Assembly (NCBI GenBank): GCA_038127535.1
Contig: JAYPHU010000010.1
Coordinates: 21,786-85,785 of the forward strand
Length of the DNA stretch: 64,000 nucleotides
Direction of reading: 5' to 3'
Origin: Rhodospirillaceae bacterium
Lineage (GTDB): Bacteria; Pseudomonadota; Alphaproteobacteria; Rhodospirillales; UBA2165
Under the pieces are notes generated by a model. It ran no database searches and was not told the DNA's origin. It saw nothing but the letters and a program-made list of their open reading frames with translations. The position numbers and the translations under genes are program-made. Positions 16,498 through 40,571 of this stretch are shown piece by piece. Each line of letters starts with the position of its first letter. The first letter of the stretch is position 1.

Positions 16498-17541
16498 TCA
16501 GTTTACCGAATCCCCGAAATCACATTGACGAGCCCAATCAGGATCGGCCCGGTAGATTCGATCAACCAATTGCATCGTCCGTAATGCATCGTCGGATGAG
16601 CCGTTGATGATTTCGCCGCCTTCGATAATCGCCGTCGCAAACTCATCGATTTCACTGGACCAGGAAGGATCGCTCTCATAACAGGTTGTCACTTCCTTTG
16701 GATCACCTTGGTCGTCTTCGGCGGCGTAGGCGACGGTCATTGTTTCATCACCATAACTCTTGGATCCCGATAATATCCCGGACAAGGTAACAGCTCCTTT
16801 TTCAAGAGTGATATCCAGTTGGAACATGTGCTTCCATTGCGTGGCCGACGAGTGAAGCATGGCGACGACACCATCTGAAGTACGCATCAACGCATAAGCG
16901 TTATCTTCGACATCATGCTTCCAATAATCATTGCTGACGAAACTATGAATTGTTTCGAATTCGCCGGCGAACAACCGCATTAAATCGACCATGTGGATTC
17001 CTTGGTCCAACAGGATTCCGCCACCGGCAACGGCTTTTTTAGTACGCCAATCGGAATGTTGCCCGAAGCTGATAAATTTTGATTTTCCGTATACACCACG
17101 CAGGTTCATGACACGCCCTAGTTCGCCGGAGGCAACGATATTGAGCGCATCCTGGACGGAGTCGTGATAGCGGTGGTTAAAACCGTATTTCAGCTTAAGC
17201 GTGGGCTGTTTTGCTTCGACTGCGCGAACACGGATAACGTCTTCCACCGTCCGGCCGGGCGGCTTTTCGCAAAACACGTGAATACCGCTCTCGAGACCGG
17301 CGATGGTCACTTCAGGCGCGATGTCATTCGTCATACACACGAATAACGCATCGAGATCTTCGCCAATAAGGTCCTGATAGTTTTTGAATTTTTTCAAACT
17401 CCTGCCGGATAATTCGGAATCTGAAGAATTACGATCACAAACGGCAACAGTAACGAGATCCGGGTGCTGGTCGATAAAATGATGGCGCCGTTTGCCGACA
17501 ATGCCATAACCGGCAATTCCTACGCGCAAAGGCTTTGTCAT
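16498..17541 (-). CDS. Gfo/Idh/MocA-family NAD(P)-dependent oxidoreductase
   Basis: VGIAGYGIVGKRR Rossmann start and VFCEKPPGRT (EKP motif). Confidence 0.85.
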   Translation of the reverse strand: MTKPLRVGIAGYGIVGKRRHHFIDQHPDLVTVAVCDRNSSDSELSGRSLKKFKNYQDLIGEDLDALFVCMTNDIAPEVTIAGLESGIHVFCEKPPGRTVEDVIRVRAVEAKQPTLKLKYGFNHRYHDSVQDALNIVASGELGRVMNLRGVYGKSKFISFGQHSDWRTKKAVAGGGILLDQGIHMVDLMRLFAGEFETIHSFVSNDYWKHDVEDNAYALMRTSDGVVAMLHSSATQWKHMFQLDITLEKGAVTLSGILSGSKSYGDETMTVAYAAEDDQGDPKEVTTCYESDPSWSSEIDEFATAIIEGGEIINGSSDDALRTMQLVDRIYRADPDWARQCDFGDSVN

Positions 17542-18640: not shown

Positions 18641-19852
18641 CTACTCTTTTTCTACTGCTGTATTCCCCATGAGGCGCGAGCGCACACGTTGGACGGTATT
18701 GCGGATAGGGTTTTGAAGGTTTTCCGGTAGTTTGACGAGTGTCTTACGTGCATGATCTTTCGCCATGAAAAACGCTAAATTATTGTTACTGCGCCGATGC
18801 AAAATCAGGCTCTGTCGAAGAATTTTCAAAGACACTTCAGAATCAACCAGACCACGTTCCGTTACCTTAACGATGCTGCGGTCGATTTGTGCAAACATTT
18901 CGTCAAATTGGTCATGATCAAATTTTAGGTAATTTTTCTGGAAACCTAACGAATTGTCCGGATTTGCGACCAGATTGATATCCGGTTCGGCATCATACTT
19001 CAGTCCTAAGGCAACGAATCGTTCGATTTCTTCACAGTTGACTCGGTTCAGCGTCATGCTGATAGAAAATTCAAAATCCGTTTTGTTTTTTCTTTGCTTC
19101 AACCATTCGAGATTTTCGAGCACCTCGTTCCACGAAGCTTTTCGCCCACGAAGACGCAAGGCATCAAAACTTTCTTCGGTCGCGGCATCCAGCGAAACCG
19201 CCACGCCGAGCAACTCCTTGGTTGCCAGAATAGCCTTAACCCGCTCGGTAAACAAAGTCGCATTCGTAATAAAGTAATATTTACACCCGTCGGTCAGTTG
19301 ATCATTTTCCATAAAGTCCAGAACCGGGCGGTACAAGAACGGTTCTCCACCAAACGGGAGTACGACTTGAAAATGCGGAGACATTTCGGTGATCTGCTGC
19401 ATAAATGACGCTGGCAGCTTGAGCCGCATCAACGCGTCGTCGCGCTGATAACAGTGATAACAATCGAGATTGCAGGCATAGCTATAGGCAAAGCGCATCC
19501 AACGGGGTTTCGATTCTAGGGTTGTGAGCCGCTGATCGAACTCGATCTCGTTCTGGGCCGCATTCTGACGTGCTAGGCTTTGTGTGGGTAAGTCTTCGTA
19601 CCAACTCAGATTCCGATATCGTTTTCCGCCCTGTAGAATGGGGCAGGTGTGTGGGCACAACAAATGGGCGCCCTCATTAGCCATCTTTTTGCGTATACTC
19701 TGGAACCTTTCACCGTTCCAGATGTCTTCCACGGAACCCTCGTTGACATTTCCCAACACGGTCGCGTTGTCGCAACACATGGTTACGTTGCCATTGGGAT
19801 TATTTACTTCAAAGTGAGTCCAAGGATGGTCGCAAACGAATTTATTTTTCAT
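18641..19852 (-). CDS. Radical SAM enzyme with an N-terminal twitch/SPASM-like Cys domain
   Basis: C7-x13-G21-x4-C26C27 ... LGNV ... EDIWNG ... C66-x3-C70 precedes the core cluster motif C127-x3-C131-x2-C134 (YACNLDCYHC). Confidence 0.8.
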   Translation of the reverse strand: MKNKFVCDHPWTHFEVNNPNGNVTMCCDNATVLGNVNEGSVEDIWNGERFQSIRKKMANEGAHLLCPHTCPILQGGKRYRNLSWYEDLPTQSLARQNAAQNEIEFDQRLTTLESKPRWMRFAYSYACNLDCYHCYQRDDALMRLKLPASFMQQITEMSPHFQVVLPFGGEPFLYRPVLDFMENDQLTDGCKYYFITNATLFTERVKAILATKELLGVAVSLDAATEESFDALRLRGRKASWNEVLENLEWLKQRKNKTDFEFSISMTLNRVNCEEIERFVALGLKYDAEPDINLVANPDNSLGFQKNYLKFDHDQFDEMFAQIDRSIVKVTERGLVDSEVSLKILRQSLILHRRSNNNLAFFMAKDHARKTLVKLPENLQNPIRNTVQRVRSRLMGNTAVEKE

Positions 19853-19877: not shown

Positions 19878-20975
19878 TCATACTTCGATGCACTCCGATA
19901 TGGTTGCGACGACAGGCCGGAACTGCTCAACGGTCGTTACTGAAAATCGGCTATATCTTGAAAGGCAGGGCTCAAAAAACGATTGTCGATAATATACTAT
20001 CGAGTCCAAACGATTATGAATTTCGGGGGCATAATGGCCAAAACCGACCAACTGAAAATTACCCTCCGTTTTCGGCACCTCAAATCCCAATTGGCGCATT
20101 GATTCGGCGAAATAGTCTTTGCCGTTCAAGAGCCTTCGAATTGAGGCGTCCATTTCCTGCATGTTGTCCAGCAAGTGATCCAAAATTGCGGCGGCAAATC
20201 CGCCCAGCTCATACATAGGCTTAACTTTGTGAAGTATGTCGGTTAATTCGGGCGATGCGACACAGTAGCCAATACGAATTCCGGCTAGTCCCCATGACTT
20301 ACTGGCGCTACGAATAACAACCAAATGTGGATACTTCTCCGTTAGCCCTAGGACGGTTTTAGGATAGAAAGGCACATAGACTTCGTCGACGAGCATAATC
20401 GCCCCAACATTACCCGCAGCCTGAGTAAGCGCCTCAAGTTGCTCAGGTTCGAACACCGATCCTGTCGGACTATCTGGGTTGGGGAGACAGACAAGTTTTG
20501 GCCGGAGATCGTGAATCGCCGAAACAAACCGATCGAACCCTATTACAGGACCGTTCTCAGAATACTCATACGGAATCGTTTTTTGGTGGGCACCGAAAAT
20601 TTTGCAATAGACGTCATACATTGCAAAGGTCGGATGAGTCCGCAGCACAAAGTCTCCTGGATTAATAAACGCCTGAAATACGGAGCTTATGGCTGCGTCA
20701 GAGCCGTTTGTTAATAGCAACTTGTCCGCACTCACGCCCAAAAAAGAGGCTAGTTTTCTGTAGACCGGCGCAACATTCGGATAAGTGGCAACGGCCTGAT
20801 TTGGCAAGTCCGACACTACACCGACAATATGGGCAAGTAATTCTGGATCCAAATTCTCATTTTTGTCGAGCCAAAGCTTTTCAGTTTTCCTCCCGCCATC
20901 TTTCAGCCAGTCAGGGCGAACCAGAGAAATATCGGATACGGAATCTCGAGGTTTAGGGGTAGTATACTTCGTCAT
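19878..20975 (-). CDS. Class I/II PLP aminotransferase (HisC-like)
   Basis: PLP-lysine motif SASKSWGLAGIRIGY. LPNPDSPTG. Confidence 0.8.
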   Translation of the reverse strand: MTKYTTPKPRDSVSDISLVRPDWLKDGGRKTEKLWLDKNENLDPELLAHIVGVVSDLPNQAVATYPNVAPVYRKLASFLGVSADKLLLTNGSDAAISSVFQAFINPGDFVLRTHPTFAMYDVYCKIFGAHQKTIPYEYSENGPVIGFDRFVSAIHDLRPKLVCLPNPDSPTGSVFEPEQLEALTQAAGNVGAIMLVDEVYVPFYPKTVLGLTEKYPHLVVIRSASKSWGLAGIRIGYCVASPELTDILHKVKPMYELGGFAAAILDHLLDNMQEMDASIRRLLNGKDYFAESMRQLGFEVPKTEGNFQLVGFGHYAPEIHNRLDSIVYYRQSFFEPCLSRYSRFSVTTVEQFRPVVATISECIEV

Positions 20976-21041: not shown

Positions 21042-22832
21042 TCACTGAGCTATCTCGCCAGCAGTAGTAAATTGCCTAAAATCCGGACAAGTTTCGATAA
21101 GCGAATCAAAATCACCCACCGCTGTCACTCGCCCCTCCTTCATGAAGACCAGGCGGTCGCATTGGCGGACCGTATTTAATCGATGCGCTATAATCAAAAC
21201 CGTCATGTCACTGGACAACGAATTTATCGATTTCGTTATTTCCCGTTCTGTCTCGTTATCAAGAGCAGACGTTGCTTCATCGAGAACTAATAACTGTGGA
21301 TCAATGTAAAGGGCGCGCGCAATGGCTAATCGTTGGATTTGCCCGGCTGAAAGACCATGACCGCCCTCGCCTATCTGTTCGTCAATTCCGTTTGGCAGGG
21401 TTTCAACAACGTCTTCTAGACGGGAGAGATTGAGAGTTTCGTGGATACGATCATCGTCAATATCCGAGTCGTCAATTCCGAAAGCAATATTTTTCCGGAC
21501 TGTATCGTTCAACACACGAATGTTTTGAGGGACGTAACCAATTCGTTTCTGCCAATTCGACATGTTTTCGGACGGATCAACTCCATCGACCTTTATCGTT
21601 CCCGACGTTGGCGTAAGGAGACCCATAATGATATCGACGACCGTAGTTTTGCCCGACCCTGACCGGCCGACGAACCCGATCCGCTCTCCAGGGCGGATGA
21701 TAAGATCGAATTCATTTATCGCAGCAAGTGACGTATTGGGATAGACATAGGACACATTGGCCAAATGTATCTGACTGTCGAACCTAATAACGCGCGCGGT
21801 TGTTCGTTGGGGCTGGTCGACCACCACGTTGTATTGTTGCAAATCGGCGTACAGCTCGTTGATATAGGCTGTACGATCTCGAAGTGCCGCAATATTCGAG
21901 AGAATTCTGTTCAGCGTCGGCATCAACCGGAAACAGGCCATGCCGAAGAGACCGAGCACGGACACGGCTTCGCTAGGTGAACGGTTAGATGTTAATGCCA
22001 GCGCCGCTACTATCAACGCGACAACCAGAAACGATTCCAATCCTAACCGCGGCAAATGTATGGCCGTTGACGTGTTCGTGTAATACCACGCGCGCCAATG
22101 GGCGATCTGGCTAAACGAGCGAGAAAACGCCTCATGGCTATGCGATAACTTAATATGACGTATATTGGCCAACGTCTCCGTAATCAGGCCGATGAGGCTC
22201 CCTTCATAGCGCATACCGTCATGTCCCCAGCGAACAAAAGCCCGGGCGGTCGATTTCTGGAGGAAATAAGAGAAACCAAGCAGTACAGCAGCGGAAACGC
22301 TGATTGCAACCGGCTCAACGAGCATCAGAAGCACAACGATGCCTGCTAGCATCAGGATGTCCAAAACAATCAATATAACGAAGCGCAGGCCCTCAAAAGC
22401 CTGGCCGCAACCGGTCACCAAGTTTCTCAGCAACTCCGAATAGGGTCGCCGCAAATGAAATACCAGGGGCTGATGCAGGTAGGTCTTATAAAGTTGCGTC
22501 GAGAAATTCGCGCCTTTCAAATACATCACGATATTGACGAGATACACAATCCCCAACTGCAGCAAACTTTTGAAAATAAAAACAGCGATAAAGATTGCGG
22601 CAATAACTTTAAGGCCCGCATCCTTGAAAACATCGGGTAAATATTGAAAAACCGAAATCGTCGCCCCCACCTCGCCCTCACCCAAGAGCGCAAGGTGGAT
22701 AACGGGCAATATCAAAGCAATGCTGAACATCTCGAACAGGGCAAGCGCTAGCATCGGTATCAAAAGCAGACCCAGGTGAACACGATCCGGCAGGCTGACA
22801 AACATTGTTAGCTTTTTTAAAAGCTCAATCAT
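21042..22832 (-). CDS. ABC exporter, fused permease-ATPase half transporter (MsbA/PglK-like)
   Basis: Six N-terminal hydrophobic helices. Walker A GRSGSGKTT, signature LSAGQIQR, Walker B LLVLDEATSALD. Confidence 0.9.
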   Translation of the reverse strand: MIELLKKLTMFVSLPDRVHLGLLLIPMLALALFEMFSIALILPVIHLALLGEGEVGATISVFQYLPDVFKDAGLKVIAAIFIAVFIFKSLLQLGIVYLVNIVMYLKGANFSTQLYKTYLHQPLVFHLRRPYSELLRNLVTGCGQAFEGLRFVILIVLDILMLAGIVVLLMLVEPVAISVSAAVLLGFSYFLQKSTARAFVRWGHDGMRYEGSLIGLITETLANIRHIKLSHSHEAFSRSFSQIAHWRAWYYTNTSTAIHLPRLGLESFLVVALIVAALALTSNRSPSEAVSVLGLFGMACFRLMPTLNRILSNIAALRDRTAYINELYADLQQYNVVVDQPQRTTARVIRFDSQIHLANVSYVYPNTSLAAINEFDLIIRPGERIGFVGRSGSGKTTVVDIIMGLLTPTSGTIKVDGVDPSENMSNWQKRIGYVPQNIRVLNDTVRKNIAFGIDDSDIDDDRIHETLNLSRLEDVVETLPNGIDEQIGEGGHGLSAGQIQRLAIARALYIDPQLLVLDEATSALDNETEREITKSINSLSSDMTVLIIAHRLNTVRQCDRLVFMKEGRVTAVGDFDSLIETCPDFRQFTTAGEIAQ

Positions 22833-22905: not shown

Positions 22906-24102
22906 TCAATCGATTTCCCGAAAGTACGGTAAAGTAAGTGGGTCACCTGCCAAAACACGGAAGAAAAGTCCGTAATAATATCGAACGCGCCGGATATACG
23001 CGTAACCGGCGGCGATAACCGCATGAAATTTCCCCCTACTCAGACAATTGAATAAATAAACGGGGCTGACGAACCGTAATTCGTAGGTCGTAGGCAAGGG
23101 GATCGCAAAAAAGGAAAGAGCTCCGTGAATGAATAACGGCCTGTGTTTTCGATCAAAGCCGCAATGATCGAGTCTATTTTTTAATATGAAGTCGAGAACG
23201 AATTTTTCCGTCCCGAGAAGTTTCTGCTGCCAGTTATTGCTTCTAATCCGGCTCGTAAACTCCCGCTCATCCATACCAGGCTCTCCCTGCACGGGAGATA
23301 AATTATCGCCCCACCATCTTAGGCCGGCCCATGTTGATTTCATTACGCACGGATGAAATTCAACGCCAAGCCAGCAGCAAAGCGATCGCAAGACGGACTC
23401 GTTTGACAAATCCTCCATCCGCATAACTCGGAACCGGTCGGCAAGCGCAAACAGCGGTGCAGGATCGTCGATCAATCGTTTTAAGGCGAGGCGTGGAAGC
23501 GACGGTTCATCGATCAATTTTGCTTCTCGGAGAACCTGTTCCATTTTGGAAACGTATGCCGCACGTGGATCTCTCGTCGTGGCTATCATTTTGCTTTGCG
23601 GAAAATCTTCGAAATACGGGTCCAGCCGGCTGATGTCATGGATATGGTGAAAGAATACTTTCTTGATCATCGGATCTTGCCCAAGCGCCAACGCATAGGA
23701 AACGTAAACGGCCGATAAAACGTTTTTTCTCGTTACCGCCCGATTTTTAAAAAGGGCTGCCATATGGCCTTTAAACGCTGGAATATCGATACTAATCGAT
23801 TGATCCATGCTCTCGCCCAACCGATCCTTCCGTTCGACGACATCGTATTTCGACCGGAATTTGTCGATATGGCTGCCGATAAATTCTTGGGTGATATCTT
23901 CGATATCTAAATATTCGGAGCAGACGGTGCTTTTAGCGTTCTGCCAAAACTCGTGAAAAAATAAAATCCCATTGAAATTGAATATTTCCGGATGAGAGTC
24001 GAGCTGGCTTTGCAATGCGTCGCTCCCGGCCCGCCCCGTAGCCACCAGCCCGCACCAACCGCAACGATCAACATGAGCCCAGATTTGATCATAGTTTATC
24101 AC
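22906..24102 (-). CDS. Putative PAPS-dependent sulfotransferase
   Basis: 5'-PSB-like ATGRAGSDAL and 3'-PB-like TTRDPRAAYVS. GTGA overlap with the APS kinase stop at 24099-24102. Confidence 0.6.
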   Translation of the reverse strand: MINYDQIWAHVDRCGWCGLVATGRAGSDALQSQLDSHPEIFNFNGILFFHEFWQNAKSTVCSEYLDIEDITQEFIGSHIDKFRSKYDVVERKDRLGESMDQSISIDIPAFKGHMAALFKNRAVTRKNVLSAVYVSYALALGQDPMIKKVFFHHIHDISRLDPYFEDFPQSKMIATTRDPRAAYVSKMEQVLREAKLIDEPSLPRLALKRLIDDPAPLFALADRFRVMRMEDLSNESVLRSLCCWLGVEFHPCVMKSTWAGLRWWGDNLSPVQGEPGMDEREFTSRIRSNNWQQKLLGTEKFVLDFILKNRLDHCGFDRKHRPLFIHGALSFFAIPLPTTYELRFVSPVYLFNCLSRGKFHAVIAAGYAYIRRVRYYYGLFFRVLAGDPLTLPYFREID

Positions 24103-24647
24103 TCGCCACCGGCCTCCACGGTGAAATCTGGAAGCGCCACCCTTAACCGCGGCACGGCCATTGCCACCTCCCGAGCCATTTCCACCGGCGAACGCCGATT
24201 ATCCGCGTCCAAAACCATGTCTGGGTTGACCGGCTCATGCCACTCGATATCCATGCCCACGACATTGCCCATTTTCCCATCCCGAGCCTGCGCGTAGAGA
24301 GCCTTGGTATCCCGCGCTATCACGGTATCCAGAGAAGCGTGAAGATAGACTTCGAAGTAGTCGTCTAGATTGGTCCTGTTCCAGTCCAATAAATCGGCAT
24401 TGCCGTATAGGACGGCAACAATAACGACCAACCCCTGCTCCGCCAGAACCTTCGACATGGCCTGTAAGCGCCCAACCTGCAAAATCCGATCCGTTTCGGA
24501 ATAGCCGAGGTTATGCCCAAAGGCAGCCCGAACGATATCGCCGTCCAGAATGACGAGTTCAGGAAGCCGAGGCTTTAAGAGATCTCGCAACGCCGAACAC
24601 AGCGTCGTTTTACCGGCCCCGGAAAGGCCCGTGATCCATACAATCAT
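24099..24647 (-). CDS. cysC: Adenylylsulfate (APS) kinase
   Basis: MIVWITGLSGAGKTT P-loop, LDGDIVR, YSETDR. Confidence 0.9.
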   Translation of the reverse strand: MIVWITGLSGAGKTTLCSALRDLLKPRLPELVILDGDIVRAAFGHNLGYSETDRILQVGRLQAMSKVLAEQGLVVIVAVLYGNADLLDWNRTNLDDYFEVYLHASLDTVIARDTKALYAQARDGKMGNVVGMDIEWHEPVNPDMVLDADNRRSPVEMAREVAMAVPRLRVALPDFTVEAGGE

Positions 24648-24678: not shown

Positions 24679-25860
24679 TTAAACGAGTGTTTTACGGGTT
24701 ACCGCATCAGGCGACGACGAAGACGTCTGGGTTTCAAAGGATTCAAAGCTTTTGCGGGCAAGGTCACGAGCAGCCGGCCCATCGATACTCCGGATATTGT
24801 TGGCTGCACGCGCCCGGGTTATCAGCCCGTCACCCATTTCGGCAATATCTTCCGAACGCAGATACGGGGATATATACTTGCCAAGGTCCAATCCCCTCAA
24901 CCATCTATCTAATAGATCGGGAAATTCCTGTGTTTGGGCGCCAAAGGCATCCGCAGCGATCGCCACGCGGTCCGCATCTTCGTCCATATTAAAACGCGCG
25001 ACTTCCGGTAACGTGAAGCTGCAGGCGAACCCATGCGGCATATCGTATCGCGCCGTAAACGGATAGGACAATGAATGGGCAAGCGCTGTCTGGGTTGTGC
25101 CCATGGCCAAGCCACTCAAAACCGCAGCCGTTTGCATTTGCCGGCGCGATTCCACATTTTCGGCATCTTTCATGACTATCGGCAAGTGGACCTTAATAAT
25201 CTGGATGGCGTTAGCAGCAATCTGATCCGACAAATCCGTTTGATTGCGGTTCCAGATGGATTCAAGAGCATGTGATAATGCGTCCAGCCCGCTCGCCAAC
25301 GTAACGTCCGGGGGCATGGATAGGCATAGCGCTGCATCGAGAACTGCGGCCATAGGAAATAGTTTCGGATGCGTAAAAGAAAACTTAACCTGATCGTCGC
25401 CCCAAACGGTCGCCCACTGAGTAACTTCCGATCCGGTGCCGGAGGTTGTAGGGACGGCAATAACCGGTAACGGCTCAAAGTCGGGGGGCAGGTTCTCACC
25501 GTCTCTCAAATGACTCGTCATTACCTCGTCATTTTTCCCCAGACCACAATATCCCGCGATCGATTTTGCACAATCGATAACCGACCCGCCTCCCAGGGCA
25601 ACAATAATTTCGGCGTCACCGGTCAGCTTATCGGCCAAACCGACGACATCGGAAACCTTCGGGTTTTCGGGTATCGTTTCAATACACGCAACCGGTTCTC
25701 CGGCAAATCGGTATACCGATTCCAGCGCCCCGCGTGCGCGCCATCCTCTGCTGGTCGCAATCGCCCAGGACCGGCCTGAAATGAGCTGGCCAATCGCCTC
25801 CCCGTAGGCCTGCGTATAATATACGCGCGTCGGGCTGTAATAAGGACGGTTCAGAACCAT
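24679..25860 (-). CDS. Iron-containing (group III) alcohol dehydrogenase; by context a phosphonoacetaldehyde reductase candidate
   Basis: LGGGSVIDCAK and LSHALES His region of Fe-ADHs. Its ATG lies 10 nt inside the end of the HEPD/MPnS-like gene. Confidence 0.75.
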   Translation of the reverse strand: MVLNRPYYSPTRVYYTQAYGEAIGQLISGRSWAIATSRGWRARGALESVYRFAGEPVACIETIPENPKVSDVVGLADKLTGDAEIIVALGGGSVIDCAKSIAGYCGLGKNDEVMTSHLRDGENLPPDFEPLPVIAVPTTSGTGSEVTQWATVWGDDQVKFSFTHPKLFPMAAVLDAALCLSMPPDVTLASGLDALSHALESIWNRNQTDLSDQIAANAIQIIKVHLPIVMKDAENVESRRQMQTAAVLSGLAMGTTQTALAHSLSYPFTARYDMPHGFACSFTLPEVARFNMDEDADRVAIAADAFGAQTQEFPDLLDRWLRGLDLGKYISPYLRSEDIAEMGDGLITRARAANNIRSIDGPAARDLARKSFESFETQTSSSSPDAVTRKTLV

Positions 25861-27212
25861 TGGGACGTTTCTTCGATTGCGCGTTTTTTCCCGCTCGGCG
25901 CGAACGAGGCAAATTCGTCGAGGACGGAATCAGTGAAAGCTCCCGGTACGCGAATCATCGCCAGTTTGCCGTCTTCCGCACCCGTAACTCTCTCGAAGCG
26001 ATGGGTAACCAATGGGAGCACATAGGCCGAATCTCCTGGCTGCAAGGTCCGGCGCTGGTCGTCCGCCCAAACCAGATCAACCGGCGCATCGCCATAATTA
26101 TAGATATATTCGTGCAGCGCATGATACATATCACCCCCCGGTCCACCGAGAACGGCAACGTCAAAGCCTTTGAGCAATGGTTGATGCGAACAGCGGGCAA
26201 GCTCAACCAATTGATAGGCCGGTTGATTTCCATCAGGATATCCGCGCCCTGGGGTGGTGCTTAGTTTGCGCACCACAACGCGTCTCTCGGATGGAACGGA
26301 ATCGGCCATGAGATCGGCCGGTCGAACGTTCAGCAGCTGCGCCACAGACTGTACCTCGTCCCATGTCGGCACTTCACCATCGAGAAGGGCCTGGGCGCGA
26401 GGTGCCTCGCACCCGTTTTCGATCATGCGTGAAACGAAACTCGGGACGGTCATGCTCTCGGCGGCCAACTGACGCTTCATCCTAAGGGCGAACGGCGCAT
26501 CGACGTCTAAATTTCCGGCATGATCCATGAGTGACTGACCATCGACCGAGGCGAATTCACGATAGGCACGGCGAACCTCCCCGCCATAGGTGATGGCGAT
26601 GATCAAGCCCCTTGTCTCCGAATCCCGGCTGGTGAAACTATGAGGAACAAACGGCGTGATATAGTTCGAATCGCCGGTATTCATTTCTTCGCAATAACGG
26701 CGTCCATCGATTTCCCAGTAAAAATTCACGGGGCCGATGAAAAAGGTCGTTTGGTGCATAAAATGTCCCTTGTTATAGGCGACATCAGGGTTTTCGGGAT
26801 CGGCGTTGTCGACATAGCGTATTTCGGCGATCCACTCCGGCTTAAAGGGCGCAAGCTGGCTCATGGCCGTATCGCGGTATTCATAGTAGGGAGATGTCGA
26901 TCCGGTACGATCGACCCTGTCGAAAATACGCGAAGACCGGCGGGATTGTTCGGCGGTCATGACCAGAACACCGTTGTCGGTGTCGTCGCTGTCCAGCCAA
27001 ATATCGGCAAGCGAAATCGGATAAACTTCGGCCATAGTTTTCATAACGTTCTCGGCGGTCGTCAAATCCGTCTGTCCGGCAATCGTGGATTCGATAATTT
27101 CCAATGGGATGCCGATATCCTGCGCGAGCGCTGACGGAGTGCGTTTAAGATCGTTTGCCTCACTTAGTATACGTGCGCCCAGTTTTTGCAGAAACTGACC
27201 CTGTTTGGTCAT
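25851..27212 (-). CDS. HEPD/MPnS-family (HTH-cupin)x2 non-heme iron oxygenase; methylphosphonate synthase-like
   Basis: Two repeats of an XRE-like HTH plus a cupin. First cupin: GH150FMHQ154TTFFIGPVNF164 ... YI185TPFVPH191. ATGA overlap with the upstream nucleotidyltransferase at 27209-27212. Confidence 0.7.
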   Translation of the reverse strand: MTKQGQFLQKLGARILSEANDLKRTPSALAQDIGIPLEIIESTIAGQTDLTTAENVMKTMAEVYPISLADIWLDSDDTDNGVLVMTAEQSRRSSRIFDRVDRTGSTSPYYEYRDTAMSQLAPFKPEWIAEIRYVDNADPENPDVAYNKGHFMHQTTFFIGPVNFYWEIDGRRYCEEMNTGDSNYITPFVPHSFTSRDSETRGLIIAITYGGEVRRAYREFASVDGQSLMDHAGNLDVDAPFALRMKRQLAAESMTVPSFVSRMIENGCEAPRAQALLDGEVPTWDEVQSVAQLLNVRPADLMADSVPSERRVVVRKLSTTPGRGYPDGNQPAYQLVELARCSHQPLLKGFDVAVLGGPGGDMYHALHEYIYNYGDAPVDLVWADDQRRTLQPGDSAYVLPLVTHRFERVTGAEDGKLAMIRVPGAFTDSVLDEFASFAPSGKKRAIEETSQWF

Positions 27213-28015
27213 ATGGATTCCTCGTTCAGAGATTGAAGGGTGCTCAACCGTTGGCGGTCGGCAATAGTGTTCAATCGATTATAATCTTGGAGCGTGTCGA
27301 GTTCGGCCCACCCACGTTCGACCAACGCCGCGTCGATGCGGTGCCCCCTGTCGACAAGCTCCTGGAACATATCCGTTATGTAGGCGATACGCCAAGCACG
27401 AGCCCGTTGAAACGGTTCTTCGGGGTCAAGCCGTTTGTCTAGTTCGTCAAACGTCTCCCGCATGAGCGTAGTTCCGTCCGCGCTCATACGCCATAAACCA
27501 AGGAATTCACCTTGTTCTTCTATCTTTTCCTGCGGCTCCTTCAGCCCTTTTCCAAATCTATGCAATCTGCCGTCGGCGTCGAAGTGGGCGTTCTCGGCTT
27601 CTTCGGGGGGATGTTCCGAACGGCCGATATAATAATCTTTCCAATCCGTATCGACCGCCGCGACGATGTCGCCGCCGGTGTTTACAAGCGCTGTGTAGAT
27701 GCCGGGTTCGACCCAAATATCCGAATAGGTACAAATCAACGGCCCGTCGAGTGCATCCCGGGCACACATCAATGAATGCAGGATATTATTGTTTTCGTAG
27801 TTGTTATTCCGGACGAAGCGGACGCTATCTGTTTGGACGGCCTCGCTCATATGGCCGACGATAACGATAATTTCATCGCAACCGGCGGCACGAAGATTAT
27901 CTTTCGCGCTTTCAATCAGGGGGCGCCCGCCGACCGGTAACATGCATTTAGGGCGCACTATTGTCAGTGGACGCATACGCATCCCCATCCCCGCCGCGAT
28001 AATTACCCCTTTCAT
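27209..28015 (-). CDS. LicC/PntC-like nucleotidyltransferase (cytidylyltransferase candidate for a phosphonate or phospho-alcohol)
   Basis: MKGVIIAAGMGMRMRPLT (GxGxR) with a small-molecule NTP-transferase fold length (268 aa). ATGA overlap at 28012-28015. Confidence 0.75.
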   Translation of the reverse strand: MKGVIIAAGMGMRMRPLTIVRPKCMLPVGGRPLIESAKDNLRAAGCDEIIVIVGHMSEAVQTDSVRFVRNNNYENNNILHSLMCARDALDGPLICTYSDIWVEPGIYTALVNTGGDIVAAVDTDWKDYYIGRSEHPPEEAENAHFDADGRLHRFGKGLKEPQEKIEEQGEFLGLWRMSADGTTLMRETFDELDKRLDPEEPFQRARAWRIAYITDMFQELVDRGHRIDAALVERGWAELDTLQDYNRLNTIADRQRLSTLQSLNEESI

Positions 28016-28911
28016 TGTTTCGGTCTTCTTTCAAAAAAATTGTTGGTATCGATTGTTTCGGTGTCAGGCTCCCCGCCGGACGTCGAAACCCGGAGCTTCA
28101 AGTCAAAACCGGCATCAACCATCTCTTGCGTGATGAATTCGAAGTTTTGCCGGTTTGCCGTCGTATTAGTCGGCGGCAATTCAATCATCACTGTCTTCAA
28201 ACGTGTGTCCCGAAGCGTCGTCTGGGCTCCTCTGATTACCCTCTCCTGAATACCGTCGATATCCACTTTCATGTGGGTTGGAAATGGCACATCAAACGTT
28301 TCCAGGAAAGAATCGATCGAAAACCCGATGGCCGGAAATTGCTTCACCGCATCGACGGGACTCCCGTGATTGTCGAGCGTTTGACCGAACACCCCACCGG
28401 CACCGCCGGCCATATCACCCTCCACCGGAACGGAAAGGGGAGAAACCTCTGTCTTGTCTGACAACGCTAAACAGAATGGCCAAACGCGGTCGGCTAGACC
28501 ATTCAAGTGGATCGTCTCGACTATATTGGCATGATTCTGAGGCAACGGATCGAATGCCAGAACGCTCGCGTCCGACTTGACGGCCGCATAAAGGCTAAAA
28601 ATTCCGATATTAGATCCGATGTCCCAGAAGTTGTCGGCCTTCGCGAAACCGGCGATCCACCGCAGTGTATCGGGCTCCCTCTCGAGCATCCTCTCAACGC
28701 GGATTCGAACCAAATCGCTGTCGATACGAAATTTGATTTCATCGCCACCTATGTCGACGGAATAACTGCGATCGAAACGGTCGAGAGAGACAGCTAGTAA
28801 CTTGAAGTAAAAAGCCGGAGAAACTGACCGGGCCAAGGTTTCAAACGAATTTATTAAAAGATTGAATGACCGGTGGGCAATCGAGGAGTTCAAATCGTTA
28901 GGTCGTGGCAT
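28012..28911 (-). CDS. FkbM-family methyltransferase
   Basis: FWDIGSNIGIFSLYAA motif. Trimmed to the ATG at 28911 (MPRPNDL...), preceded by GAGAAGG. The track start at 29010 would overlap the SDR gene. Confidence 0.75.
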   Translation of the reverse strand: MPRPNDLNSSIAHRSFNLLINSFETLARSVSPAFYFKLLAVSLDRFDRSYSVDIGGDEIKFRIDSDLVRIRVERMLEREPDTLRWIAGFAKADNFWDIGSNIGIFSLYAAVKSDASVLAFDPLPQNHANIVETIHLNGLADRVWPFCLALSDKTEVSPLSVPVEGDMAGGAGGVFGQTLDNHGSPVDAVKQFPAIGFSIDSFLETFDVPFPTHMKVDIDGIQERVIRGAQTTLRDTRLKTVMIELPPTNTTANRQNFEFITQEMVDAGFDLKLRVSTSGGEPDTETIDTNNFFERRPKQ

Positions 28912-28921
28912 GGGGCCTTCT

Positions 28922-29635
28922 CTATTCTCCACCCGCGATCGTAACCGTTTGGCCGGTGACATAGGTATTGTCTTCCGAACCGTACCAATAGACAAAATTC
29001 GCAATTTCACCGGGCAGTGCCATTCGCCCCATCGGTATCATCGAAACGCGTGCCGACATATCTTTCCCTGAATCTCGATCATGGATTCGTGTTTCGGTAA
29101 CGCCAACCCTAACGGTATTGATCAGGACGTTGCTGGCTGCCCATTTCCTATAGTCGGACGGCAAAAATTCTAGTGCATGCTTGGTCAGGGAGTATCCAAA
29201 TGTCGATGATCCTCCGCCAAATTTCGCCCCGATACTGCTGAGGTTAATTATCCTGCCCCACCCGCGCTCAACCATCGGCGGCACGGCCATCCGAGTTATG
29301 AGAACCGCCGGCACAACGTTGACTGCAAATAAGTGCATTAGATCCTGTGGCTGAATATCGGCGAACGGCTTCGCCTGCAACTCAGCGGCCGCATTGATTA
29401 CGCAGTCGCTTTCCTCAATCGCGGATCTAATGTCACTGAGTTTCGATTCCAGCGCGGCATGATTCGAAAAATCAATTTGGACCGGCGTTACTCTGTCCGA
29501 CGATTCCGTCAAACGCCAAAACGAATTTTGCCCTCTATTGTAATGGGCGAGAACCTGCCAACCCTTTTCGAGATAAAGCCGGCAAAGTTCGATCCCGATA
29601 TCCGAACTGGCCCCGGTTATAAAAACTTGGCGCAT
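28922..29635 (-). CDS. Short-chain dehydrogenase/reductase (SDR)
   Basis: ITGASSDIGIELC (TGxxxxIG) and YSLTKHALE (YxxxK). Confidence 0.85.
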   Translation of the reverse strand: MRQVFITGASSDIGIELCRLYLEKGWQVLAHYNRGQNSFWRLTESSDRVTPVQIDFSNHAALESKLSDIRSAIEESDCVINAAAELQAKPFADIQPQDLMHLFAVNVVPAVLITRMAVPPMVERGWGRIINLSSIGAKFGGGSSTFGYSLTKHALEFLPSDYRKWAASNVLINTVRVGVTETRIHDRDSGKDMSARVSMIPMGRMALPGEIANFVYWYGSEDNTYVTGQTVTIAGGE

Positions 29636-29637: not shown

Positions 29638-30597
29638 TTAACCTTTTGACGAAATCGTACCCTTCGGCACGATCCTTTCAAATTTCTCCCAGGCCTCGAC
29701 ATGGTCCGAACCCATTAGGGTTCCTTTTACGTCACACAATCTGCATGGCCCGAAATCTCGGTCTGCGGCGGCTAACCGTTTCCGCGCGATTCTCATTCGG
29801 CGTCCGGCCCAGATCTCCAGGAAATTCGATTCGTTCATGTTCCCTACCACGAGCATTTTTCCCCAATCATGAGGGCACATTAAAACGTCGCCCGTATAAT
29901 CCATAAAAAAGGTGTAGTGAGGGTAATTACACGCGGCCTTGATTGGCTCGGGTGGTGTATCAATCGAGTACTCCGCCGAATCCATCATTCCTGCCCGGTT
30001 ACTTAATGTAATGCCAAAGTCCTGTTCCGGTGGCAAATACCGTTTTCGAATGACGAACTGATGGGAATCCAGCCCTTCATCGCGACACAAATTTTCGAAA
30101 CGTTCCACATCCTCGGGGCCGTCATAGACGCTTATCAGAAGCGTCGAAAGACCGTTTTCAAATAACAGTTTTAGGCGTTTAGCGTCGAGAACGTCCCCAT
30201 TGGTGACAAGCTCCAGACGAACTTCGGGAAGGTTTGAACGGACAATTTTAAGTAGGTTAAAAATATTCTTATCAAGTAGTGGCTCTACAAAACCGGAAAA
30301 TAGAAATATGCCTTTGTAATTTAGTTCCGCGAGTTGCCGAACTAGCTTTTCGATAAGCTCGTCGGAAATGAACTCCTTCACGTCGGGGAAGGCTGGGGCG
30401 CTTCGCGGGCAAAACGAGCAGGTTCGATTACATGTTCCGGACTCGCTGATTTCAACCACCGAAGGCAACGGCACCTTATCGCCATGAAATGTAAGGTTTT
30501 CGTCAACGATCGACGACTTCCTTTTTATGGAAGGATCGAGGAAAGTTTTGCCCCTGTTGGTTCTCACGTTCATGGCGTCTAATTCGTTAGTTTTCAA
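29638..30597 (-). CDS. Radical SAM enzyme with canonical C-terminal twitch/SPASM-like domain
   Basis: SGTCNRTCSFCPR (CxxxCxxC). C-terminal C-x12-G-x4-C (CNYPHYTFFMDYTGDVLMC) ... LEIW ... CRLC. The track start is TTG (TTGA overlap). An ATG at 30573 is the alternative. Confidence 0.8.
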   Translation of the reverse strand: MKTNELDAMNVRTNRGKTFLDPSIKRKSSIVDENLTFHGDKVPLPSVVEISESGTCNRTCSFCPRSAPAFPDVKEFISDELIEKLVRQLAELNYKGIFLFSGFVEPLLDKNIFNLLKIVRSNLPEVRLELVTNGDVLDAKRLKLLFENGLSTLLISVYDGPEDVERFENLCRDEGLDSHQFVIRKRYLPPEQDFGITLSNRAGMMDSAEYSIDTPPEPIKAACNYPHYTFFMDYTGDVLMCPHDWGKMLVVGNMNESNFLEIWAGRRMRIARKRLAAADRDFGPCRLCDVKGTLMGSDHVEAWEKFERIVPKGTISSKG

Positions 30598-32342
30598 TGA
30601 AGCCGATCAAGGATCTCACATTTCATATCCCGTGCAATATCGCCGTCAACAACTTCGCCCATAGACTTACCCGACAGATCGATAAGCCCTGCCAATTGTT
30701 GAGTGGGGTAATACCATGTACCGGCCTCAGCCTCGCGAATGCGTTTGGCCGCCGTGGCGGAGTCTTTGACACATATGTCAGGAATCTCACGAAACATCGC
30801 TGTCGGCTGAAACGATGCTGTATCAAGCGCGAATGCCTGCATACCGAGCTGGGCCGCCTCGAACAATACGGACGAAGGGTCCGAAAACGCATATTTGCCT
30901 TTAAACATCAGGTCGTAGACGGGTTCGGTCGTGTATCTCACGTTTGGACGGCCGGCACTGCATTTTTCGACTAGCCGATCGCCGATTTCGCTTTCGTTCA
31001 TAACGCGCTTCACCTGCAGATAAACGGTTCTCTCGGGAAACGCCGCCGACAGGCCCCGCACAATATCGACAACGTCATCATGGTCCGAAAAGACGCCAAT
31101 AAAAAACACGATGTCGTTAGGCTTCGGCCTAAGCCGGTTTTGAAGTTGTGCATCTGTTAAACTATGGCTGGCGGCACCGATAACCCCCATATCCGCAGGC
31201 CAATGATCCCGGTAATGCCTCTCATAATGACTTGGGCCATATACGTAAAAGCGGTCAAAACTAACATAGCGCAAATGCGGAAATAGGTCGCAGTAGACGG
31301 GTATGCCGTCGGACATTCCGAACGACTTCGCACCTATTTTTTTTAGTTCTTGGTGCCGAAGAATATGATCGACATTGTAAGGGTCGCGCCCCCAAAAATA
31401 CCGCGGCCGGAACCTCAATACCAACCCTCTGATCTGAACACGCTTTTGCGCCAAATTCACTATCCAGAAAAAAAGACTCGGAGGAAAGTAACGGCCGGCC
31501 CTAGCCAAATCCCATGTATGCCGAATAAATTCGTCGAGATAACTCAGGGTGTCCGCAAGGCTAAACCTGCCGTCACGCCGCTCACAAACCGCCACCGGAT
31601 CCAGGCCATCAAGCTTGCTGCGGTCAACCGGCCCCATTCGCCCGACCAAAACGATATCGCCCCACCGGCGCAGGGCTTTTAGCATCGATATGTCTCTGGA
31701 ATCTTCCATATGGTCGGTCGCCATAAAGACGTCATTCAATCTTTCAACTTTCAAGCGCGTCCGCGATAAAATAAATAACACTCCCCGTACAACAACCATC
31801 ACGGCAATCAAGGCATTCACCATCATCCTTGGCAGGGATTGACGCATCTTGTCGGACGCAGACCCCGGTGAGGCGTATTCCCGGCTCATCGCCAGAAGAT
31901 CTTCGGGAACACCCACATTCTTCGCGGAATTCAACTCCTTGTCGGCAAACAGCTTCGAAAGGAGCAACGCCTCGACTTGGCGGTCCCAACTCAGTTGGCA
32001 GACCGCCTTTCGGGCCGCCATGGCATAATCCGGTATTTGGCGGTCTAGCCGCTCAAACTCGTAATACCGTTCGAGCCAGGGTTCGACGATGCGAAAAATG
32101 TCATAAAGTAAGACACTGGGCGGATAGAGCATCACCATCTTAAGTTCCGGATAACGTTTGCCCAGATCCCTTGCCCAACCTCGGCTCTTAGCCCATTGCG
32201 CCAAGGATTCGAGCAACCGTTGGCTTGGCCCAAAAGCCCCGTGGACCGATAAAATCAAGGGCGACCGCCTGAAAGCGACTTCCAACAGAAATCTCGGACA
32301 ACTTGATTCCGTTAGCCGGATGACAACTGGATTACGCGACAT
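30594..32342 (-). CDS. Orphan GT-B-like surface-carbohydrate biosynthesis protein (paralog 2 of 3)
   Basis: 582 aa with no motif I can assign. The C-terminal half is patterned like the 9567 and 35986 proteins (FGMSDG..., GPSHYERHY, FFIGVFSD..., SSVLFEAAQLGMQAF). Confidence 0.6.
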   Translation of the reverse strand: MSRNPVVIRLTESSCPRFLLEVAFRRSPLILSVHGAFGPSQRLLESLAQWAKSRGWARDLGKRYPELKMVMLYPPSVLLYDIFRIVEPWLERYYEFERLDRQIPDYAMAARKAVCQLSWDRQVEALLLSKLFADKELNSAKNVGVPEDLLAMSREYASPGSASDKMRQSLPRMMVNALIAVMVVVRGVLFILSRTRLKVERLNDVFMATDHMEDSRDISMLKALRRWGDIVLVGRMGPVDRSKLDGLDPVAVCERRDGRFSLADTLSYLDEFIRHTWDLARAGRYFPPSLFFWIVNLAQKRVQIRGLVLRFRPRYFWGRDPYNVDHILRHQELKKIGAKSFGMSDGIPVYCDLFPHLRYVSFDRFYVYGPSHYERHYRDHWPADMGVIGAASHSLTDAQLQNRLRPKPNDIVFFIGVFSDHDDVVDIVRGLSAAFPERTVYLQVKRVMNESEIGDRLVEKCSAGRPNVRYTTEPVYDLMFKGKYAFSDPSSVLFEAAQLGMQAFALDTASFQPTAMFREIPDICVKDSATAAKRIREAEAGTWYYPTQQLAGLIDLSGKSMGEVVDGDIARDMKCEILDRLH

Positions 32343-34269
32343 TCAAAATGACCTTCAGAACGTCGCCCGATTGACTTTTTTCCCATCCCTCCTTGAACTC
32401 TGAAAGCGGCATTGAACATTCGAAATAGGGGGCAAGATCCAATTCAGCGAGAAGACCAATTGCTTCTAAGAAATCTTCCCTTGCGCTTCCAACGGACCCG
32501 ACCACTGCCTTGTCGTATGCCGCAATCGTTTCAAAAGAGAACTCGGTTGGCCCGTAGGGAAGGCCGAGAAGCAAATGTGTCGATCCCGCCCGCGTCGCGC
32601 GCAAGCAATTTTCCAATGCGTCCCGGCTTCCCGTCACCTCGACTATGACGTCGAATTCGGAAAGGTCACCGATATCGTCATGGGTTGTGATGTTTGCACC
32701 GGCGATTTTCGCTAAGCGTGCCGGGTTCCGGTCGACGGCCGCAACCGAATGTCCGCGATGAGCGAGAACCTTGGCAACCAAATGGCCGAGCGGACCGGCC
32801 CCGACAACGGCACATTTTTTTGGACAGGTTTCCAGCACCCATCCGATCCGGCGCAATCCTTTCAGGACAACCGCCAACGGTTCCGTCAACGCCGCGAGCC
32901 GAAGATCTAAATCGGACGGCAAGCGGTGCACGAAACGGGCCGGCGTCATGACATAGTCAGCGTAGGCTCCATTTCGGCGCATGACGCCGATCTCCGCGCG
33001 GTCCGGACAAGCAATATTGTTGCCACTGCGGCAATAACGGCAATTTCCGCAACTTTGTATGGGCTCGACGACAACTCGGTCACCCTCGTTCAAATCCTTT
33101 ACGTTCATACCCACTGCTACAATTCGTCCAGAGAATTCGTGACCTGGGACGATCGGGAATCCGGCTAAACCGTCATCAAAATAGCCCAAAGATCCGTCGG
33201 CAACCTCAAGGTCCGTGGCGCACACGGCAACATGTGCGACCTGTATCAACACGGATGATGGGGTTAATTCCTCAACGGTATAGGGCTCTAACCTTGCTTC
33301 GCCAGGACCGCGAATAACGACGGCATGGGCCGGCCGGTCGAAGAGAAGTTCATGACGTTCGTTTTTGGTCATTACGGTATGCTTTTCAAGCGCGCCTTTG
33401 ACCGAACCGGCGTTCTTATGAAATCGAAAATAAAGAACTTCGCGAAACCGCTGCATGCGCGTCAATCGTCCGGTCACGGGATTGCCGGTGGATTTAAAAG
33501 CCGCAACCAAATCAGCCAGAGTCATTCCGAATTCTCGGATCAGGAGCTTTGGAATATGACGGCGCCCAGTGGCCCCGAATAAACGGGCACTGACAGCCTC
33601 GCGAAAATAGCGGCGCCGGATTTGGGCCCAGCTCTCTTCATGTATATGTTCGATCGCCGCGCGCGGTTCATATAAAACCCTATATCCCCTGTCGATCCAG
33701 TGCGTCGCCCATTCAATATCCTCGAGCCCCAATAATGCTTCGTCAAACCCGCGCTCAAGCCATAGATCACGCCGGATCGCGGAATTCGCATTATTGACGA
33801 ACAAATGCCCTCGTTTTTCTTCCCTGGGGACCGGTCCGAAAACCCGTTCGAAGTCTTCCGCTTCCGAGAAGCGAGAACTTGGCACCCCCTTCTGCCGCCC
33901 ATACGTCATCGCAACAGTCACATCATTTTTCATCGGCGCGATCAGTGTTTCCAGCCAATCGTCACCGTCGGGAATAGTGTGAGCTGAAACGATCACCGCG
34001 TACTGCCCTCGCGCTTCCCGGAGCCCCACGTTCAGCGAATAACCGAAGGTAAAATCTTCACTGCTGATCCGCAACAACCGATCCGCCCGCTCGGAGGCGA
34101 TGCGGCGCGTATCGTCGTAGGATCCAGAGTCCACGGCAATTACCTCGAAATCACGGTAAGTCTGCCGGTCGAACGCATCGAACAAGGCCGGTAAATGCCG
34201 GGCCTCATTGAACGCACGCACGATAATCGAGGTCTCGATCTGATCGCCCGAACTTGTTTTAACGTCCAT
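32332..34269 (-). CDS. Fusion protein: N-terminal GT2 glycosyltransferase plus C-terminal zinc-dependent MDR alcohol/polyol dehydrogenase
   Basis: GT2 part: SIIVRAFNEARHL, VIAVDSGSYDDT. MDR part: PGHEFSGRIVAVG, structural-Zn CGNCRYCRSGNNIAC, and VVGAGPLGHL Rossmann. One uninterrupted 645-codon frame. Confidence 0.8.
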   Translation of the reverse strand: MDVKTSSGDQIETSIIVRAFNEARHLPALFDAFDRQTYRDFEVIAVDSGSYDDTRRIASERADRLLRISSEDFTFGYSLNVGLREARGQYAVIVSAHTIPDGDDWLETLIAPMKNDVTVAMTYGRQKGVPSSRFSEAEDFERVFGPVPREEKRGHLFVNNANSAIRRDLWLERGFDEALLGLEDIEWATHWIDRGYRVLYEPRAAIEHIHEESWAQIRRRYFREAVSARLFGATGRRHIPKLLIREFGMTLADLVAAFKSTGNPVTGRLTRMQRFREVLYFRFHKNAGSVKGALEKHTVMTKNERHELLFDRPAHAVVIRGPGEARLEPYTVEELTPSSVLIQVAHVAVCATDLEVADGSLGYFDDGLAGFPIVPGHEFSGRIVAVGMNVKDLNEGDRVVVEPIQSCGNCRYCRSGNNIACPDRAEIGVMRRNGAYADYVMTPARFVHRLPSDLDLRLAALTEPLAVVLKGLRRIGWVLETCPKKCAVVGAGPLGHLVAKVLAHRGHSVAAVDRNPARLAKIAGANITTHDDIGDLSEFDVIVEVTGSRDALENCLRATRAGSTHLLLGLPYGPTEFSFETIAAYDKAVVGSVGSAREDFLEAIGLLAELDLAPYFECSMPLSEFKEGWEKSQSGDVLKVILNVA

Positions 34270-40548: not shown

Positions 40549-40571
40549 CGCTCGAAGCTGTTCGATAGAAG

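Follow-up and report, generated by a model that had tools for sequence, protein, structure and literature searches.

The methane produced in oxygenated seawater is accepted to derive from methylphosphonate esters of marine dissolved organic matter, and methylphosphonate synthase (MPnS) is, to our knowledge, the only enzyme that makes methylphosphonate. Within the same protein family, 2-hydroxyethylphosphonate dioxygenase (HEPD) yields hydroxymethylphosphonate and formate. This article concerns a gene of the HEPD/MPnS family, located at 25851..27212 on the minus strand of a 64,000-nucleotide stretch of DNA (the window) from a Rhodospirillaceae bacterium (assembly GCA_038127535.1, contig JAYPHU010000010.1, positions 21,786 to 85,785). 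The match of its 453-aa product to the family is far beyond chance at the level of sequence, and the open reading frame (ORF) probably encodes a functional MPnS that operates within a coupled phosphonate sub-operon, drawing phosphonoacetaldehyde from outside the locus and passing its product to a glycan.

The residues used to tell the two activities apart were tabulated in a survey of marine phosphonate genes, in which mpnS is marked by H148, Q152, F162, I/V184, and H190 and hepD by H148, A/Q152, I/Y162, E/G184, and H190 (Lockwood et al. 2022, Suppl. Table S2, PMC9381506). A 2-His-1-Gln triad with Phe and Ile beside the Gln has been described as ‘required for methylphosphonate synthesis’ (PMC11978286). 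Marine mpnS clusters from SAR11/Pelagibacterales, Rhodospirillales, and SAR86 contain glycosyltransferases, nucleotidyltransferases, and ‘arylsulfatase’-family genes, which suggests that methylphosphonate is carried as esters on glycans (Lockwood et al. 2022, PMC9381506). Two further systems provide precedents for the activation of such groups. CMP-phosphonates are produced by PntC-type enzymes, which share the signature GXG(T/S)RX4-8PK and are represented structurally by Tde-PntC (6PD1; PMC6697681), while Cj1415-1418 make CDP-phosphoramidate 3'-phosphate in the O-methyl phosphoramidate (MeOPN) pathway of Campylobacter (PMC11800397).

The probable mpnS gene and its marker residues

An earlier note on this DNA had described a 453-aa ORF encoding two repeats of a helix-turn-helix (HTH)-like domain followed by a cupin, and both parts of this description hold. 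Translation of 25851-27212 gives a single minus-strand ORF of 453 aa with an ATG start. Profiles of its N-terminal and C-terminal halves align with each other over 193 columns (hhalign probability 99.2%, E 1e-19), and an AlphaFold2 (AF2) model (pLDDT 94, pTM 0.90) places a helical domain at residues 3-71, a barrel at 82-209, a second helical domain at 212-311, and a second barrel at 312-422. The annotation of the product as MPnS draws on this internal repeat and model, on phmmer searches of PDB sequences, and on the marker columns considered below. The best PDB match, N. maritimus MPnS (6b9s; E 1.4e-84, 288 bits), covers residues 5-453 and exceeds the second, S. albus HEPD (6b9r; E 6.2e-67, 230 bits), by 58 bits. 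The predicted structure superimposes on MPnS (6b9s/6b9t) with template modeling (TM) scores of 0.88-0.91 in Foldseek, so that the protein shows both the full-length homology and the two-repeat bicupin fold of the HEPD/MPnS family. HppE epoxidases consist of one helical and cupin unit of ~198 aa with a His/Glu/His site, unlike the two-repeat, 453-aa protein of this locus, and gave only weak single-repeat matches (phmmer E 2.3e-06 to 0.003; Foldseek TMq 0.30-0.32).

An identical protein is on record in the metagenome-assembled genome (MAG) GCA_038124865.1 and in Logan assemblies SRR26337523-28. The nearest other relative on record is 59% identical, and the closest relatives come from Kiloniellaceae, Rhodospirillaceae, and Thalassospiraceae. 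Many homologs at 50-59% identity bear the JGI name ‘methylphosphonate synthase’. The gene thus adds a divergent bacterial member to the MPnS family, with no more than 59% identity to other recorded proteins.

The active-site segment of the first cupin lies at 26640..26765 on the minus strand, as located by translation and alignment. Translation puts GHFMHQTTFFIGPVNF at residue 149 and YITPFVPH at residue 184, which identifies H150 (codon 26765-26763), Q154 (26753-26751), F164 (26723-26721), I185 (26660-26658), and H191 (26642-26640) with exactly the spacing quoted in the earlier note. The MPnS numbering given there, H148/Q152/F162/I184/H190, is reproduced by counting along the PDB chain, and the note's assertion that Tyr and Gly take the two discriminating places in HEPDs agrees with the S. 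albus HEPD chain, which reads H149/Q153/Y163/G184/H190. Residue identities by column were established in a MAFFT alignment of 242 sequences, comprising the 120 closest homologs, representatives of at least 380 aa of 50%-identity clusters, and the two PDB references; Pelagibacter HTCC7211 MPnS and PhpD lay outside this set, and PhpD was compared with the query by fold only. The query has H-Q-F-I-H in the MPnS columns, whereas S. albus HEPD has H-Q-Y-G-H. The HQFIH combination occurs in 196 and HQYGH in 18 of the aligned family members; column by column, the His, Gln, and His ligands are invariant in 240-242, Phe is found in 211, and Ile in 198 (with Val in 8 more). The columns of MPnS K28/R102/Y110/N145, which we take to bind the phosphonate, are invariant in 237-242 of the 242 sequences and are occupied in the query by K23/R99/Y112/N147.

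By these comparisons, H150/Q154/H191 of the query stand in the columns of the 2-His-1-Gln iron triad, and F164 and I185 correspond to the Phe162 and Ile/Val184 of MPnS. The query, with Phe and Ile, fits neither the Tyr162/163 and Gly184 of class-II HEPD nor the Ala152, Ile162, and Glu184 of class-I HEPD. A Y163F/G184I variant of HEPD, reportedly studied by Born and co-workers in 2017, is said to make methylphosphonate. The product of the 453-aa enzyme is probably methylphosphonate rather than hydroxymethylphosphonate, a prediction made in the earlier note and supported by the MPnS-type F164/I185 columns, by the published marker rule, and by gene context.

The second cupin of the protein has features of its own. 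It contains H364/H367/E368/H404 where N. maritimus MPnS has V/H/Q/H and S. albus HEPD has THQI, and alignment of the two repeats sets H364/E368/H404 opposite the iron ligands H150/Q154/H191. The HHEH pattern is found in 74 of the 196 F/I-type sequences and may represent a second metal site or a relic.

The coupled sub-operon and alternative readings

The mpnS gene is part of a tight six-gene sub-operon that encodes, in order, an FkbM methyltransferase, a nucleotidyltransferase, MPnS, an iron-containing alcohol dehydrogenase (Fe-ADH), a homolog of adenosine 5'-phosphosulfate (APS) kinase, and a sulfotransferase-like protein, with junctions of -4, -4, -10, +31, and -4 bp. It is translationally coupled to the genes on both sides, a LicC/PntC-type nucleotidyltransferase and a phosphonate-type Fe-ADH. 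The Fe-ADH gene (24679..25860, minus strand; Pfam Fe-ADH and ADH_Fe_C) overlaps the mpnS stop codon by 10 bp, and its product is a predicted phosphonoacetaldehyde reductase of the PhpC/Pdh type that would make 2-hydroxyethylphosphonate (2-HEP). Its best NCBIfam match is TIGR03405, Phn_Fe-ADH (E 5.8e-88, 295 bits, under the cutoff of 423.7), and a mate in its 90% cluster carries the JGI name ‘phosphonate metabolism-associated iron-containing alcohol dehydrogenase’. This linkage of mpnS to a TIGR03405-type reductase is accompanied on the other side by the nucleotidyltransferase gene (27209..28015, minus strand), which overlaps the mpnS start by 4 bp and is predicted to activate the phosphonate as a nucleoside monophosphate (NMP) conjugate, CMP-methylphosphonate. 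The nucleotidyltransferase matches Pfam NTP_transf_3 (PF12804, E 1.4e-15), has LicC (1jyk, E 1.9e-12) and Tde-PntC (6pd1, E 5.9e-08) as its best PDB matches, and is 30% identical to the NTP domain of a Ppm fusion protein in a related locus (L008). Its N-terminal GMGMRMRPLTIVRPK fits GXG(T/S)RX4-8PK save for M in place of T/S. The domain, the signature, and the linkage to phosphonate genes thus together place the protein in the PntC/LicC family. The adjoining FkbM-family methyltransferase gene (28012..29010, minus strand; Pfam Methyltransf_21, NCBIfam TIGR01444) overlaps the nucleotidyltransferase start by 4 bp and may serve in O-methylation of a sugar or of a phosphonate ester; L015, L008, and L097 each have a Methyltransf_21 gene in a comparable place.

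The association of nucleotidyltransferase, MPnS, and Fe-ADH genes is recurrent. Among 88 loci collected for their mpnS homologs, Fe-ADH lies beside mpnS in 53 and an NTP-transferase in 48, and the 56%-identical relative L008 has a full set of genes for NTP-transferase, Ppm-NTP fusion, Ppd, MPnS, Fe-ADH, sulfatase, and kinase. The genes for phosphoenolpyruvate (PEP) mutase (ppm) and phosphonopyruvate decarboxylase (ppd), a feature of the pathway rather than of the enzyme, have a different distribution. Searches for the motif EDKx5NS in six frames of the window and of all loci, for Pfam domains in all 53 ORFs, and by tblastn with the genuine Ppm and Ppd of L008, extended to the flanks L010/L012, found no PEP mutase or phosphonopyruvate decarboxylase in the window or 10 kb past either end (~84 kb). 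When linkage statistics were restricted to loci in which 5 kb or more flanks mpnS on each side, ppm/ppd was adjacent in 13/13 loci below 43% identity to the query vs 1/9 in the query's clade (at least 43%; Fisher p 2.8e-5). Of the same nine clade loci, all keep the Fe-ADH, eight the NTP-transferase, and seven the kinase. The layout without ppm is found as well in a complete genome, that of Thalassospiraceae bacterium LMO-JJ14 (CP134604.1; L015). In the clade at large, L008, L025, L026, and L049 have adjacent ppm/ppd. The absence of ppm/ppd from the locus means that phosphonoacetaldehyde must come from elsewhere, and the simplest reading is that the two genes lie elsewhere in the genome, which is its most likely source; neither the MAG nor strain LMO-JJ14 could be recognized among the best 120 of 7,667 Ppm-profile matches. 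As mpnS in this clade is mostly unlinked from ppm/ppd, surveys anchored on PEP mutase will miss such producers or misjudge their pathway.

From these genes we infer the identity of the product, its activation with CMP, a glycan acceptor, and an outside supply of phosphonoacetaldehyde. In the proposed pathway, phosphonoacetaldehyde would be reduced to 2-HEP by the Fe-ADH encoded just downstream of mpnS. MPnS would act as a non-heme Fe(II) oxygenase in which H150, Q154, and H191 of the first cupin hold the iron and F164 and I185 pack on the Gln ligand, and it would cleave the C-C bond of 2-HEP with O2 to give methylphosphonate and CO2 instead of the hydroxymethylphosphonate and formate of HEPD. 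The LicC/PntC-type enzyme encoded just upstream would then form an NMP conjugate of the phosphonate, most likely CMP-methylphosphonate, from which the methylphosphonyl group would be moved onto the complex, nonulosonic-acid-containing glycan that the remaining genes of the 64-kb operon assemble.

The call of MPnS over HEPD is weaker than the E-values suggest and is carried mainly by two marker residues and by context. Several observations weigh against it. Overall identity is 37% between query and MPnS, 35% between query and S. albus HEPD, and 38% between the two references, values so nearly equal that the product call depends on the two marker residues. The TM-scores are likewise equal (0.88-0.90 for S. 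albus HEPD vs 0.88-0.91 for MPnS), and fold comparison was discarded as a discriminator between the two on that account; the class-I HEPD PhpD is clearly farther from the query (TM 0.73-0.79, 17-18% identity). All experimentally characterized members are distant from the query, and the nearest relative, at 59% identity, is uncharacterized. In a neighbour-joining tree with 200 bootstraps, three Y/G sequences are nested within the F/I group, and support is 0.65-0.78 at the relevant nodes, 0.0-0.66 at deep nodes, and near 0 at inner nodes. The absence of ppm/ppd noted above and the lack of the sulfatase-family gene described below count on the same side. A class-II HEPD releasing hydroxymethylphosphonate and formate would be compatible with the near-equal identities and TM-scores, with the His/Gln/His ligands common to both enzymes, and with the HEPD-type neighbourhoods containing surface-modification genes that have been reported in marine bacteria (PMC9381506). 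It is nevertheless quite improbable, given that F164 and I185 are the MPnS residues, not Y/G, in both discriminating columns, that phmmer favors MPnS by 58 bits, and that the query falls in a clade that is almost purely F/I (64 of 74 members), most Y/G sequences lying elsewhere (15/18 outside the 126-member group that contains both the query and N. maritimus MPnS).

Two other explanations accept the family assignment and depart from the proposed pathway elsewhere. One holds that a true MPnS runs on salvaged phosphonate, either phosphonoacetaldehyde formed by transamination of environmental 2-aminoethylphosphonate or imported 2-HEP, in a cell that makes no C-P bond of its own. The lack of ppm/ppd across ~84 kb and beside mpnS in 8/9 clade loci vs 0/13 distant ones would fit such a lifestyle, as would the retention in 9/9 clade loci of an Fe-ADH that needs phosphonoacetaldehyde. 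It is simpler, though, to suppose that ppm/ppd lie unlinked elsewhere in the genome, and L008, L025, L026, and L049 show that clade members can have both genes adjacent; moreover, the window contains neither a PhnW-type class-V aminotransferase nor a phosphonate transporter, its aminotransferase at 19878-20975 being HisC/CobD-like, and we regard salvage as improbable. Less probable still is an oxidation of a phosphonate other than 2-HEP, or an HppE-like reaction, tied to the nonulosonic-acid pathway. Such a role could draw on the varied chemistry of the superfamily, of which HppE is a weak match, and on an unusual locus with many radical-SAM and methyltransferase genes. The HppE similarity is marginal, however (E 2e-06 over one repeat), all columns for MPnS ligands and putative substrate-binding residues are conserved, the partner Fe-ADH is of the phosphonate type, and the 56%-identical orthologue in L008 lies in a canonical ppm-ppd-mpnS-adh cluster.

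Kinase, sulfotransferase-like protein, and the glycan operon

The gene at 24099..24647 (minus strand) encodes a divergent APS-kinase homolog of 182 aa (Pfam APS_kinase; NCBIfam NF004041, 144 bits, over the cutoff of 127), which may be either a kinase that forms 3'-phosphoadenosine 5'-phosphosulfate (PAPS) or a Cj1415-like 3'-kinase for a nucleotide-activated phosphonate. Compared with five solved APS kinases, it retains the P-loop, LDGD, and K-LY-AR-G motifs, while (I/V)SPYxxxR is replaced by VLY(A/G/N)xxxLL (here VLYGNADLL) and (F/L)TGxDxPY by VVGxDIPW (here VVGMD, for FTGID). Both replacements recur consistently among the mpnS-linked copies and throughout the 120 nearest database homologs. 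Members of this divergent subfamily include L004, L008, L009, L014, L024, L027, L030, and L039, together with P0403-P0521. In the six closest loci the kinase is better conserved than MPnS itself, at 58-68% vs 50-58% identity. JGI gives several homologs with 60-72% identity the name ‘cytidine diphosphoramidate kinase’, which is the activity of Cj1415. A reverse test, in which the neighbourhoods of three kinase homologs were inspected, gave mixed results: one homolog lies in an mpnS-type module, one (L096) with a sulfatase-family gene only, and one (P0505, L097) directly upstream of ATP sulfurylase. This outcome demoted the Cj1415-like reading to a minority hypothesis, which we consider unlikely; ordinary PAPS synthesis for glycan sulfation is at least as likely a role for the kinase.

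The last gene of the sub-operon (22906..24102, minus strand) overlaps the kinase stop by 4 bp and encodes a 398-aa sulfotransferase-like protein (Pfam Sulfotransfer_3, E 3e-05, 24.8 bits, under the cutoff of 27), a candidate transferase that would use a 3'-phosphonucleotide donor. Its GRAGSD and TTRDPRAAYVS motifs resemble what we take to be the 5'-PSB and 3'-PB (PAPS-binding) motifs of sulfotransferases. It has no significant sequence match in the PDB and is not conserved in relatives, with counterparts only in L039 and L049 at 24-28% identity. A tblastn search with the L008 sulfatase found no gene in the window for the sulfatase-family (PF00884) protein of the relatives' modules, so that no transferase could be identified.

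By analogy with the MeOPN pathway, the cassette of the clade (nucleotidyltransferase, MPnS, Fe-ADH, and kinase) might be uncoupled from C-P bond formation, with CMP-methylphosphonate 3'-phosphorylated to a PAPS-like donor from which an enzyme of the sulfotransferase fold (in the window) or the sulfatase fold (in relatives) would transfer the methylphosphonyl group to the glycan. This elaboration is unlikely. If true, 3'-phospho-CMP-methylphosphonate would be the CH3 analogue of the CDP-phosphoramidate 3'-phosphate of the MeOPN pathway, and the cassette would be the first proposed route for attaching methylphosphonate to polysaccharide. The kinase subfamily that travels with the module offers a testable idea for the steps of activation and transfer.

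The sub-operon is embedded, as the earlier note had stated, in a very large glycan operon. Essentially all real ORFs of the window are read from the minus strand; among their products are glycosyltransferases, nonulosonic-acid enzymes, methyltransferases, and radical-SAM enzymes. The contents include NeuB, a hydrolysing UDP-GlcNAc 2-epimerase, three CMP-sugar synthetase-like genes, a WbuX/HisH/HisF-like amidotransferase set, a Maf/PseD-like domain, an MBOAT protein, glycosyltransferases, many methyltransferases, and five radical-SAM enzymes. A nonulosonic-acid block at 39505-48531 (minus strand) comprises NeuB, the UDP-GlcNAc 2-epimerase, a CBS-nucleotidyltransferase, the amidotransferase genes, a CMP-transferase, and the Maf/PseD-like (MptE) protein. 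This context suggests the kind of surface polymer that would bear methylphosphonate, although the Maf/PseD-like protein is of the flagellin-glycosylating kind and the acceptor could thus be protein rather than polysaccharide. The gene at 21042..22832 (minus strand) encodes a PglK/MsbA-like ATP-binding cassette (ABC) exporter (Pfam ABC_membrane and ABC_tran; NCBIfam PglK NF050066, E 7e-91, far below cutoff), a probable flippase for the lipid-linked glycan.

The five radical-SAM genes (1173-2918, 18641-19852, 29638-30597, 37975-39474, and 51420-53480, all on the minus strand) comprise three B12-binding and two SPASM types, and a further one lies just upstream of the window (L012 2602-4434). Such a density is unusual for one glycan operon, and many SAM methyltransferases occur alongside; it suggests C-methylated or otherwise heavily tailored sugars. 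A second shared sub-block on the minus strand (9567-11327, 13102-13875, and 16498-18632) encodes two GFO/IDH/MocA oxidoreductases, a CMP-transferase, and a 586-aa TIGR04326-like protein. This sub-block is common to L015 (LMO-JJ14), L031, L033, and L039, with up to 60-67% identity for the oxidoreductases and CMP-transferase and 36-37% for the 586-aa protein, which hints at a common decorated sugar. A family-2 glycosyltransferase fused to a zinc alcohol dehydrogenase (ADH_N/ADH_zinc_N; 645 aa) is encoded at 32332-34269 on the minus strand. Two large ORFs, 30594-32342 and 35986-37926, match nothing in Pfam or NCBIfam.

The stretch at 57130-58385 (minus strand), which lies upstream of most of the operon, encodes a NusG paralog (167 aa) together with an HTH_24 regulator, an arrangement that resembles the operon-specific antitermination (RfaH/UpxY type) of very long polysaccharide transcripts. 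The right-end ORF (61120-63864, minus strand) runs past the window edge; its full form in the source contig (L012 6108-10001) specifies 1297 aa that include a ribulose-phosphate 3-epimerase domain, and it is followed by a tandem IspD/NTP_transf_3 protein (59570-61120). Further upstream of this epimerase-domain ORF lies an IS1595 transposase fragment.

Comparison with described systems

The enzyme most like the one described here is N. maritimus MPnS (6b9s/6b9t; EC 1.13.11.73), which has the same length, the same two-repeat helical and cupin build, His-Gln-His ligands, and Phe and Ile beside the Gln, and whose gene likewise neighbours those of an Fe-ADH and of nucleotidyltransferases in a surface-glycan setting (PMC9381506). 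The query differs in being only 37% identical, bacterial, unlinked from ppm/ppd, and divergent in the residues of its second cupin. S. albus class-II HEPD (6b9r) has the same fold and His/Gln/His ligands and acts on 2-HEP, the substrate proposed for the query, but it carries Tyr163/Gly184 in place of Phe164/Ile185. As for the nucleotidyltransferase, PF12804, a near-signature N-terminus, and LicC and PntC as best structural relatives connect the gene of this locus with Tde-PntC (6pd1/6pd2) and Spn-LicC (1jyk), whereas its identity to them is low, with PDB matches mainly over the N-terminal 60-110 residues, and its predicted substrate, methylphosphonate, is not a known substrate of any PntC.

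Like this locus, the MeOPN pathway of C. jejuni pairs a nucleotidyltransferase with a kinase of the APS-kinase family within a capsule or glycan locus, next to methyltransferase genes, and by chemical inference CH3 in place of NH2 is the only difference between CMP-methylphosphonate and CDP-amidate. On the other hand, no glutamine kinase (Cj1418) or Cj1417-type hydrolase was identified at the query locus, and the kinase homolog of L097 stands beside ATP sulfurylase, as fits ordinary PAPS synthesis; the comparison of the query kinase with this pathway is drawn from JGI homolog names.

The marine bacterial mpnS clusters (Lockwood et al. 2022; Acker et al.) share the enzyme family and marker residues with the query. 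They differ in the linkage of ppm/ppd, which is adjacent in all 13 loci of distant clades vs one of nine in the query's clade, and in that the query window has a sulfotransferase-like gene instead of a sulfatase-family gene. Earlier publications already cover MPnS and its marker residues, the presence of the enzyme in marine Rhodospirillales, SAR11, and other groups, and its glycan-type neighbourhoods. The present locus extends this literature slightly, through the clade-wide unlinking of ppm/ppd, the placement of mpnS within a very large nonulosonic-acid operon, and the co-travelling divergent kinase subfamily, and we consider the unlinking and the kinase subfamily more useful than the identification of the enzyme itself.

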